This document shows, piece after piece, positions 9,722 to 12,420 of a stretch of DNA of 64,000 nt. Under the pieces are notes generated by a model, which was given only the letters and a program-made list of their open reading frames with translations, searched no databases and had not been told where the DNA came from. The DNA comes from Escherichia phage JP4. The stretch lies in the sequence record PQ330092. One strand, 5' to 3'. Made by a program: the position numbers and the translations under genes. Numbering within the stretch: the first letter of the stretch is position 1; each line of letters begins with the position of its first letter.

Positions 9722-9761
9722 AAACCAGACTTATTTAGAACAAGTCTGGTTAATTTTTTTT
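9722..9761. terminator. Rho-independent terminator after fibre-like gene 9760..10656
   Basis: Hairpin ccagactt-atttagaac-aagtctgg flanked by an A-run upstream and a T-run downstream on the plus strand. Confidence 0.65.
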
Positions 9762-10656
9762 ACTTACCAGAGATGACAATCTTACCACTGAAAGAAATAT
9801 CAGAAGTGAAGATTACATCACCAGTACTACTAATTTGTGTATCAGTCACTACCAATTCAAATGGAGATGACGAAACACTCCCAGGTGTTTTATTTGCATA
9901 AATTGAAATATACAAATTATCTGGTGTTTGATTGTGTTCAGATGCAGGAATAGTGATTGTAAAATCACCATCACTAGAAACCCAATCTGCTTGGTTTACC
10001 AATTTACTATAAGGTACTGTCATTGTTGTTGCTCCTATAATGTTTACTTTAACACTTGCATAATCTGTGATTTGACCAATCACATCAATTGTTATATCCC
10101 CAATACCACTAACTGTTACTGTGGTTTGGAATACTGATTCCAATGCAACATTACCTGGGTCACCTTGTAGTTGGATCATAATATCAGAACCTCTACCATG
10201 AACTGATTCTGGTAGTGTGTAAGTATAATGATCAGTAGTATCTGGCACTAATGTAAATGCAGAAACAGGAACTATTTCAGTAGTTACATATGAGCTATCA
10301 GTCCCAGGTGAGCTACCTTTAAATGGTTTCCAAATACCAAGATCTTTAATATAAATTTGAAGAACATTAGTACTATCAACCAAAAAGTAAACGTCACCAT
10401 CTAGACCGATCGAATCGGATGGTGCTGTTGTTCCACGTAAGATACCAGAACTACCACCACCACTGTGTGCGTTTAAATATCCCAATGTAACCAAGTGTGT
10501 GTTTGCAGTTGGTTCACCTGCTGAAATTGGAAGAAGTTGTGTTCCTGAGTAGTTTTGAATTTGCACAACACTACCATTTGTGGTAATCTGTGCACCATTC
10601 TTCCCAAGAATGAAGGACTTCTTCATGGTTCCTTCTAAATTAGAAAAAACTGCCAT
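9760..10656 (-). CDS. Fibre-like protein, paralog A (298 aa)
   Basis: N-terminus MAVFSNLEGTM...FILGKNGA is shared with ORF 10673..11278; RBS aaggag upstream. Confidence 0.4.
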   Translation of the reverse strand: MAVFSNLEGTMKKSFILGKNGAQITTNGSVVQIQNYSGTQLLPISAGEPTANTHLVTLGYLNAHSGGGSSGILRGTTAPSDSIGLDGDVYFLVDSTNVLQIYIKDLGIWKPFKGSSPGTDSSYVTTEIVPVSAFTLVPDTTDHYTYTLPESVHGRGSDIMIQLQGDPGNVALESVFQTTVTVSGIGDITIDVIGQITDYASVKVNIIGATTMTVPYSKLVNQADWVSSDGDFTITIPASEHNQTPDNLYISIYANKTPGSVSSSPFELVVTDTQISSTGDVIFTSDISFSGKIVISGK

Positions 10657-10672
10657 TTTAATATAATCTCCT

Positions 10673-11278
10673 TTATGGTAGGGTTATGTAAGTTACGGGT
10701 TGGGCAGCTTTTAATGCTGCACCAGCGGCAGTTGCTGTTATGATAGGATCTGCAATATCAATTCTATATACGTTGTTTACAACATACACTGCACGAGTTA
10801 TATACGTTCTCAAATCACCACCATTTTCGCCATCACCTTTAGCACCAAATTCTTCTGGTGTTATATAAAACTGGGCCTGTTGAACTGTACCTCCAGTAAT
10901 AAGTCCGATGAAATCGCCACCATTTTTACTGGATAGAACTTTTTTATTAATGTATAATGATTTTACCCATGTACCATTACTTTTTGCAAAAATATCAACA
11001 ATACCATCTTCATCAATTTGAAAATACGTATTATTGTTCTTTCCTACATCATCGGTAGGGGGTACAACACCAAATAATGCATTAGGGTTATCTTCAAGAT
11101 ATTTTACGTTAACTGCTGAATTAGGGTCAGATGAAGTTCCTACCTTCAGTGGTAGGAACTGTTCTCCTAGATAATCTTTTATAGAAACTGAATCATTGAT
11201 AAAATTTATTGAAGCACCTTTTTTCCCCAATATGAATTTGGGCTGCATAGTTCCTTCAAAATTAGAAAATACTGCCAT
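10673..11278 (-). CDS. Fibre-like protein, paralog B (201 aa)
   Basis: N-terminus MAVFSNFEGTM...FILGKKGA similar to paralog A over ~65 aa, divergent C-terminus; RBS gggagga upstream. Confidence 0.4.
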   Translation of the reverse strand: MAVFSNFEGTMQPKFILGKKGASINFINDSVSIKDYLGEQFLPLKVGTSSDPNSAVNVKYLEDNPNALFGVVPPTDDVGKNNNTYFQIDEDGIVDIFAKSNGTWVKSLYINKKVLSSKNGGDFIGLITGGTVQQAQFYITPEEFGAKGDGENGGDLRTYITRAVYVVNNVYRIDIADPIITATAAGAALKAAQPVTYITLP

Positions 11279-11292
11279 TATGACATCCTCCC

Positions 11293-12420
11293 TTAAATAT
11301 TATCTTGAATCGGTTGGATAGGAGCTTGCCATGAAAGAGTACAAATAATTTCCATTTTTCCATAAGGACTGTTGTTAACAGAATCGTTGAATACACATGA
11401 AATAATTTCATCAACATCGGATGCTGCATGATTAGTTTCATTAACAATAAAACGCATCTGACGATTGATATCAAAGTAGGAAGTTGGTGCAATTACAGTC
11501 CCACCAATATCTTCTTGTGCTTCACCACCAAAACGTACAAACATATCAGTTACAGGAAGAGAATAAGGTTGTATAACGTTTACATCAATATTAGAAACTA
11601 CATATCCAGCAGGACACGTACCAATAACTAATAGTGCGTTAGTCCATGAGCTATCTATTGTATTTCTAATAGAAATTGTATCTTTACCTGGTGCACCTGG
11701 TTCGCCTTGTATACCTTGAATACCTTGCTGACCTTCTTTACCACGGAATAGAATACCCTCACTCCACTCTTTTGAAGGAGGGGTAGTTGTAGTTACTTCA
11801 TCAACATAATATAGTTTTCCATCAGTGTTGTTATAAAAACAATAATCAACTGGAAGATTTTCAATACTTGGAAATTGATCACCACTGCTATCAATATGGA
11901 AACGACCACGCGGACCTTGTTCACCACGGAAAGGTATACCATCACTCCAAGTAGCAGTTACACTTTGATAGAAATAAAGTTTACCATCTTGAGTATTATA
12001 AAATGTATAGTTATCAAAAAGACCAGTTGTTGGGAAAGTAGTTCCAGCACTATCAATGTGGAACGGCTTACCCGCTTCACCCGTATCACCTTTACCAAAC
12101 TCAACACTAATCCATGTACTTGTCGGATCTTGTGCATCATTTGATTTAAAGTATAGAGTACTGGTATTGTTAGCCAAGCTTAAGTAGCACCACCCAAGTG
12201 GTTCACCAACTTTAAATTGTTCGGAAGGAATTTCAAAACCAATCTCATTAGGATAAAAGTTTTTACCATTCTCGCCATTCTGTCCTACAACAAGACCTAA
12301 ATCTTGAATTGTGTTATCTGCATAGGTTACAATTAAATGCCCAGCACCATTAATAACTAGACTTTTGATGCCGGAGTTATTACATGAACCACTGGACCCA
12401 TTGTTAAATGAAATTGTCAT
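11293..12420 (-). CDS. Collagen-like repeat-containing fibre protein (about 375 aa from the internal ATG)
   Basis: G-X-Y tract GKEGQQGIQGIQGEPGAPGKD (DNA about 11690-11755); internal duplication FHIDS(A/S)G..FP...Y.FYN.DGKLY; start placed at the ATG with RBS aaggga (listed ORF begins 36 nt earlier at TTG); N-terminus MTISFNN resembles fibre 58784..60394. Confidence 0.45.
   Translation of the reverse strand: MTISFNNGSSGSCNNSGIKSLVINGAGHLIVTYADNTIQDLGLVVGQNGENGKNFYPNEIGFEIPSEQFKVGEPLGWCYLSLANNTSTLYFKSNDAQDPTSTWISVEFGKGDTGEAGKPFHIDSAGTTFPTTGLFDNYTFYNTQDGKLYFYQSVTATWSDGIPFRGEQGPRGRFHIDSSGDQFPSIENLPVDYCFYNNTDGKLYYVDEVTTTTPPSKEWSEGILFRGKEGQQGIQGIQGEPGAPGKDTISIRNTIDSSWTNALLVIGTCPAGYVVSNIDVNVIQPYSLPVTDMFVRFGGEAQEDIGGTVIAPTSYFDINRQMRFIVNETNHAASDVDEIISCVFNDSVNNSPYGKMEIICTLSWQAPIQPIQDNI

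Follow-up and report, generated by a model that had tools for sequence, protein, structure and literature searches.

Escherichia phage JP4 (sequence record PQ330092) was analysed over a stretch of 64,000 nucleotides (the window), centred on three tail genes that correspond to genes 572, 573 and 574 of the jumbo coliphage 121Q and on a distant tail-fibre gene (Table 1). The original prediction, made by a model from the sequence alone, had treated all four as fibre-like paralogues with a common N-terminal attachment domain. Megablast searches with positions 9000–13000 and 1–25000 place the window in Asteriusvirus, the 121Q/PBECO4 group of jumbo coliphages, at ~98–99.7% nucleotide identity; no identical record was found in the phage collection. 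All open reading frames (ORFs) around 9760–12420 lie on the minus strand, and each is an annotated 121Q gene. Because the 574, 573 and 572 ORFs are separated by gaps of 14 and 16 nt and a terminator-like hairpin lies just after the 572 stop codon, the three genes probably form one transcription unit that ends at this hairpin. The literature on phages SHEFM2K, Sharanji and fEgEco12 contained nothing about these genes.

Table 1. Features of the JP4 window that are discussed in the text.
Feature	Position	Strand	Basis or description
Long tail fibre, 121Q gp571 orthologue	3232-9621	-	121Q gene correspondence
Terminator-like hairpin	9723..9751	-	13-bp stem followed by a T-run; terminator scan and sequence
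572 orthologue (121Q gp572 / CBB_227, 'virion structural protein'), 298 residues	9760..10656	-	phrog_10468, gene order
Beta-hairpin unit of 572 orthologue, ~45 residues, residues 69-112	10321..10452	-	pattern G..P....G..GD.Y......I..K..G.W
N-terminal adaptor unit of 572 orthologue, residues 1-68	10453..10656	-	exhaustive profile search
Deletion remnant of gp573 colanidase tailspike, 201 residues	10673..11278	-	residues 1-151 fused to last 50 residues
Deletion junction	10825..10828	-	4-nt exact overlap within imperfect 13-nt repeat; base-by-base comparison with SHEFM2K
Module of truncated colanidase: adaptor residues 1-68 and hairpin unit residues 69-107	10958..11278	-	BLASTP E 1e-21; hmmsearch E 1e-28
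gp574 orthologue ('tail protein'; RaK2 ORF062w / CBB_228 / phAPEC6 gp253)	11293..12420	-	phrog_13565, E 3.8e-225
Tail-fibre orthologue of RaK2 gp098 / 121Q gp607, 536 residues, N terminus MSISFN[NH]	58784..60394	+	tblastn; phrog_13229, E 1e-273

The middle gene of the three differs from its relatives. In 121Q and SHEFM2K, gp573 comprises 713 residues (2,142 bp), and the other relatives listed have the same longer span. The JP4 ORF occupies the same position, and its first 454 nt and final 156 nt match SHEFM2K gp573 with 100% nucleotide identity, which identifies it as a gp573 orthologue, yet exactly 1,536 bp are missing in between; this removes 512 codons (gp573 residues 152–663) in frame. The junction falls within the repeat GGTGaTGGcGAAA / GGTGcTGGtGAAA, which encodes G-D/A-G-E, and the start codon, ribosome-binding site and stop codon are all retained.

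What has gone is the enzyme body. Residues 96–712 of full-length gp573 match phi92 gp150 (PDB 6e0v; E 1.8e-235), the only one of these proteins that is reported to hydrolyse colanic acid (cited in PMC13450770), and residues 143–250 give a Pfam Pect-lyase signal. The 201-residue ORF has no Pfam match; the Pect-lyase region and nearly all of the region aligned to gp150 are missing from it, and with them the right-handed beta-helix catalytic body. Against phrog_6117 ('colanic acid degradation', 711 positions), the ORF aligns in two separate stretches, best at the C-terminal end of the profile. Its product would be made up of the N-terminal module followed by a linker of 44 residues and the final 50 residues of gp573, and on this sequence should not be able to break down colanic acid. 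None of the phage records searched spans the ORF in one piece, the megablast-matched records splitting at the junction. The exact 201-residue protein was not on record in the collection searched, and the 32-mer across the junction occurs once in the window and in none of the IMG/VR or metagenome contigs.

The 572 orthologue matches phrog_10468 over residues 1–298 (E 1.5e-100), its first 114 residues agree 100% with 121Q gp572 and with other Asteriusvirus records, and its place between the gp574-like and long-fibre genes is syntenic with 121Q, SHEFM2K, CBB and RaK2, all of which assigns it to this family. In the AlphaFold2 model (mean predicted local distance difference test (pLDDT) score 78; C-terminal domains mostly >90) the module is followed by two beta-sandwich domains. 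A phmmer comparison of these C-terminal domains with RaK2 ORF060w and the giant BNR proteins returned no match at E <0.01. The orthologue in phage CBB, CBB_227, has been detected in virions by mass spectrometry (MS).

The first gene encodes the gp574 orthologue, which begins with the conserved peptide MTISFNN and belongs to a family with ~70% identity between RaK2, CBB and 121Q over the first ~110 residues compared. Short G-X-Y runs lie between units of ~45 residues, the longest with seven triplets (residues 227–247) and three others with two or three. The Pfam Collagen model (PF01391) scores 16.9 bits, below its gathering cut-off of 27.2, and the description 'collagen-like' holds in a loose sense only. 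Orthologues of gp574 were detected by MS in phAPEC6 (65.6% coverage) and CBB; the phAPEC6 virion proteome includes the orthologues of both 574 and 571 (gp253 and gp256).

The N-terminal module shared by 572 and 573

BLASTP aligns the 572 and 573 orthologues with 41 identities in 109 positions (38%; E 1e-21). Ten of the first 11 residues are identical, as are 43% of the first 68 aligned ones, and similarity ends at about residue 105–110, with none beyond. The sharing of N termini that the original prediction had proposed for this pair is therefore borne out by alignment, although 'nearly the same ~65 residues' overstated the likeness and understated its extent. The complete divergence further on that it described also holds as far as similarity goes; for the 201-residue ORF, however, it arises because the C terminus is what a 512-codon in-frame deletion has left of a colanidase. 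When phmmer and a profile hidden Markov model (HMM) built from 21 diverse N termini were run over the 458 stop-to-stop ORFs that the window contains, they picked out the 572 and 573 ORFs and no others (E 3e-32 and 1e-28); the next best candidate stood at E 0.6.

Two units make up the module. The N-terminal one, the adaptor unit, has the consensus MA[VI][FY]SN[FL][ED]GT[MF]..F.LGK.G...P....HAVT..Y, and the second is a beta-hairpin unit. AlphaFold2 modelled the module as two small beta subdomains (pLDDT 83), with the hairpin unit of the 572 orthologue at about 89–93; BFVD structures matching this hairpin belong to collagen-like and tail fibre proteins. The module has no Pfam family and no sequence match in the PDB, the best hit being a generic fibre motif of HylP, 'PT..HAATKDYVD' (E ~0.1). 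Neither a sequence nor a fold match was detected to T4 gp10-like XD domains or to the head domains of the CBA120 tailspikes. As a candidate relation, the ~45-residue repeats of gp574 were compared with the hairpin unit, but sequence did not support them as further copies of it: an iterated jackhmmer profile of the unit did not recruit gp574 (E 7).

A word-indexed homologue search with the module profile gave only five matches; when 1.84 billion representative proteins were instead scanned exhaustively with the profile, at least 150 matches at E <= 0.001 were obtained. Among the matches listed, module positions 1–~68 occur solely at residue 1, in proteins 113–1366 residues long, and positions ~65–112, the hairpin unit, are present in 2–13 tandem copies in many large proteins. 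The C-terminal parts behind the ~68-residue unit are diverse: a colanidase type (P0007), pectate-lyase-like domains with a Peptidase_S74 chaperone (P0023), Beta_helix (P0024), BNR/sialidase-like (P0043, P0044, P0068 and P0127), fibrous or repetitive (P0134 and P0054), and the immunoglobulin-like (Ig-like) 572 type. The same N-terminal domain thus stands on two or more proteins with unrelated C termini both within one genome (572 and 573) and across metagenomes, so that the proposed common module with interchangeable distal parts is supported for the 572/573 pair and for the wider module family, though not for the four JP4 proteins for which it had been suggested.

By tblastn, the module is present in 71 records of RaK2-like jumbo phages. 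Escherichia phages (all but EJP2) and Salmonella SD phages have two copies per genome, and the other records listed have one. In IMG/VR contigs of jumbo phages, a single bearer is present at most loci, with two in 121Q; one 700-residue beta-helix bearer lies on a separate contig. In RaK2, ORF061w (115 residues) is the module by itself, and its product, gp061w, was found by tandem MS in purified virions (Table S3 of PMC3622015). Shortened genes also occur elsewhere, namely a 117-residue 572-type gene in Salmonella phage SD-1_S14 (P0001) and a 141-residue 573-type gene in Escherichia phage vB_EcoM_JNE01 (P0004). Truncation of the payload with the module kept may therefore recur, or these two cases may reflect frameshifts or annotation splits.

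The distant fibre and the N-terminal heptapeptide

The fibre gene at the far end of the window belongs to another family. Its first 130 residues were found by tblastn in 73 records, at one copy per genome, with 57% identity to RaK2 ORF098. In relatives (RaK2, CBB and Munch), fibre genes of the gp098 type have the major capsid gene on one side and the DNA polymerase gene on the other, and orthology and neighbourhood together assign the JP4 fibre to the gp098 family. RaK2 gp098 has the role of secondary receptor-binding protein at the baseplate, localised by immunogold transmission electron microscopy, and anti-gp098 serum lowered the plating efficiency of RaK2 (PMC10253068). As a gp098 orthologue with an N terminus of its own, the fibre is not an alternative member of the 572/573 family, as had been proposed; nor is there a link from these proteins to the whiskers of phAPEC6 and CBB, which the original prediction had also invoked.

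Alignment of the four N termini, the check that it had put forward, is significant for 572 and 573 and for neither gp574 nor the distant fibre. The gp574 orthologue, the distant fibre and the 572 ORF show no significant mutual similarity in BLASTP. Scored with the family HMM, the fibre reaches just 0.7 bits (E 17), and the gp574 orthologue falls below even that. With hhalign, run on small orthologue alignments, the module reaches a probability of 0.3% against the fibre N termini and 0.2% against those of gp574, and the two families that start with MxISFNN reach 5.6% against each other, over 10 columns only. The related N-terminal motif assigned to all four proteins reduces to two paralogues and to a heptapeptide that gp574 and the fibre share just with each other.

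That heptapeptide is unlikely to be shared by chance. Among 41 putative genes, 0.005 pairs would be expected to share five of the six residues at positions 2–7, and two pairs were observed: the gp574 orthologue with the fibre (MTISFNN/MSISFNN), and 572 with 573. M[ST]ISFN[NH] is kept in orthologues from RaK2, CBB, XaC1 and Munch. It is a seven-residue motif and not a shared domain. Since only 572 and 573 are related and the other two share a separate short motif, the locus holds a pair and not a family of four. Several jumbo-phage genera conserve M[ST]ISFN[NH] in both gp574 and gp098, tail families that are unrelated otherwise, and 572 and 573 start with the loosely similar MA[VI]FSN; these N-terminal peptides could be short assembly or docking peptides.

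Function of the module and origin of the deletion

We favour, at a probability of about two in three, the explanation that 574, 573 and 572 form a tail operon in which 572 and 573 are paralogous solely in a docking adaptor of ~110 residues, and that the colanidase body of 573 has been deleted in JP4. The adaptor would trimerise its bearer and anchor it at a baseplate or fibre-scaffold site; its extreme N-terminal peptide, as the part conserved best, would be critical. The C-terminal part would be an exchangeable payload: two Ig-like beta-sandwich domains in 572 and, normally, a right-handed beta-helix of the phi92 gp150 type that would cleave colanic acid in 573. The 1,536 bp were probably lost through slippage or recombination between the two imperfect 13-bp repeats, and the remaining 573 stub may still fill the docking site, as the 115-residue gp061w may do in RaK2 virions.

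Several points weigh against this explanation or limit it. An attachment and trimerisation adaptor is the best reading of the module, but its contact with the virion is inferred, with indirect support from the presence of the stand-alone gp061w in RaK2 virions, and any partner there is putative. The MS table of phAPEC6 virions lists neither the 572 nor the 573 orthologue, both of which are unannotated in that genome and perhaps could not be searched for. In a crude neighbour-joining tree, modules of the 573 type group with those of other beta-helix tailspikes, and modules of the BNR type cluster together; given this co-clustering of module type with C-terminal class, the combinations of module and payload look like old lineages rather than products of frequent recent swapping. 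Finally, the deletion is seen in one sequence only, and an assembly error, a laboratory-passage mutant and a natural variant are all candidate explanations for it.

The last of these points raises the question of whether the 201-residue ORF is functional at all. If the 1,536-bp gap were an artefact of assembly or consensus calling, or a recent laboratory deletion, the ORF would be a dead pseudogene; the splitting of every matched phage record at the junction and the absence of both the protein and the 32-mer from the collections searched fit such an origin, and loss of a capsule depolymerase is plausible during propagation on non-mucoid laboratory hosts. We nevertheless regard a non-functional ORF as improbable. 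The loss keeps the reading frame exactly, is bounded by short imperfect repeats as real deletions are, and leaves the start codon, ribosome-binding site and stop codon intact between flanks that are otherwise 100% identical to those of relatives; moreover, assemblers rarely drop unique, non-repeated segments of 1.5 kb. On the strength of its in-frame, repeat-flanked structure, we favour a real deletion. As to the module itself, it might act mainly as a nucleus for folding and trimerisation, in the manner of collagen NC1 or foldon-type domains, with attachment left to other parts or proteins. This seems unlikely to us, because such nuclei and the intramolecular chaperones of phage fibres are usually C-terminal (P0023 has a C-terminal Peptidase_S74 of its own), because the unit stands strictly at residue 1 in every match listed, and because the RaK2 virion contains a stand-alone 115-residue module that has nothing to trimerise. 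The two roles are not mutually exclusive, and the module may both trimerise and attach.

Four paralogous fibres or whiskers that compete for one site through a homologous attachment domain, the arrangement envisaged at the outset, would account for the loose pattern M-[AST]-[VI]-[FS]-[SF]-N at all four N termini, for a match between MTISFNN and MSISFNN that exceeds chance and is conserved across genera, and for the association of all four proteins with the tail by annotation or by MS of orthologues. Yet the comparisons that should have joined gp574 and the fibre to the pair (BLASTP, family HMM, hhalign and, for gp574, the hairpin profile) gave nothing significant, and RaK2 gp098 sits under the baseplate and does not behave as the long-fibre proteins do (PMC10253068), which makes this arrangement very improbable. 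A narrower idea is that, in RaK2-like jumbo phages, the ~68-residue unit is a dedicated adaptor for one particular socket of the baseplate or fibre; it would accept any payload, be it a colanidase, another beta-helix depolymerase, a BNR protein or Ig-like domains, and the socket must stay occupied. Such a requirement would explain both the payload-free 115-residue version in the RaK2 virion and the in-frame, adaptor-preserving deletion in JP4; we put it forward tentatively, as possible but doubtful.

Two points are of practical value. The N-terminal unit is a domain family without annotation by which candidate receptor-binding proteins of RaK2-like jumbo phages can be recognised, and it could guide host-range engineering; a dedicated adaptor, if real, would furthermore be a handle for retargeting such phages. 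The sequence very probably leaves JP4 without a working colanidase. It would thus be expected to infect mucoid E. coli, which produce colanic acid, less well than 121Q or PBECO4 do, and this would be relevant to the use of the phage in therapy or biofilm control. For annotation, the 201-residue ORF should be recorded as a remnant and not as a new short fibre.

Neighbouring genes and known systems

Just downstream of the operon, the gp571 orthologue encodes 2,129 residues, as against 1,841 in 121Q, SHEFM2K and phAPEC6, and is only ~71% identical to 121Q gp571, so that a second gene of the distal receptor-binding apparatus sets this isolate apart from its closest relatives. Internal direct repeats in this gene fall into three families, whose periods are 510, ~420 and 336 nt. 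Beyond it, a gp569-like structural protein (338–2302, minus strand) begins with MSINRIRGDGGVII, and RaK2 ORF060w (9513–11045 of the RaK2 stretch) begins with MSIYRIRGDSGVII; RaK2 has its gp569-like gene immediately after ORF061w, which encodes the stand-alone module, and lacks the long-fibre gene (gp571) there. On the other side of the operon, the divergent genes 575–577 (165, 202 and 366 residues; 12531–14759, plus strand) are conserved beside it in all RaK2-like phages, and their orthologues are virion proteins by MS (gp250c and gp251c in phAPEC6, CBB_230 and CBB_231 in CBB, gp063 and gp065 in RaK2). Their products are candidate partners of the module.

Around the distant fibre gene, an ORF of 185 residues (60363–60920, plus strand) overlaps the end of the fibre gene. 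Because CBB and Munch, in which a tail-fibre-assembly gene follows the fibre gene, annotate a tail fibre assembly protein at the same place, it probably encodes the chaperone of the gp098-like fibre. Between the major capsid gene (55604–56779) and the fibre gene, the segment 56924–58743 (plus strand) encodes a CxxC-rich protein of 365 residues and an ORF of 108 residues. This segment varies among RaK2-like genomes, and the position of the 108-residue ORF, which is that of the T5orf172-domain gene of CBB, suggests homing-endonuclease-like insertions.

A conserved anchor at the N terminus is an established principle of modular receptor-binding proteins, to which this case contributes an example and not a concept, and the genes described here already carry annotations in many genomes; the new elements are the strain-specific deletion and the finding that the module is a portable unit of N termini. 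The closest system is gp572/gp573/gp574 of 121Q (also of PBECO4, phAPEC6, SHEFM2K and G17), with the same genes in the same order at ~99% nucleotide identity, from which JP4 differs in its gp573 (201 versus 713 residues) and its gp571 (2,129 versus 1,841). With phi92, an unrelated phage, full-length gp573 shares the colanidase body: the first ~95 residues of gp573, the module, precede the part that aligns with the crystallised gp150 chain (PDB 6E0V/6E0W), and the JP4 ORF keeps the equivalents of gp150 residues ~11–66 and of the last ~50. The same logic of a conserved N-terminal anchor with exchangeable C-terminal depolymerase or binding domains is found in CBA120 TSP1–4, RaK2 gp526–gp534 and phiK64-1 (PMC10253068). 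The module described here has no detectable relation to the gp10-like or tailspike head domains of such branched complexes and is found on at most two proteins per genome, and in RaK2 itself it occurs only as the 115-residue gp061w, the branched fibres of that phage being built on other N-terminal domains. For the distant fibre, RaK2 gp098 is the counterpart (595 residues versus 536 in JP4), with divergent distal parts and no relation to the 572/573 module. Orthologues of the 572 module, at the same genomic position and with 60% and 67% identity over 112 residues, are RaK2 gp061w, which is the module alone, and CBB_227, in which the module is joined, as in JP4, to beta-sandwich domains.

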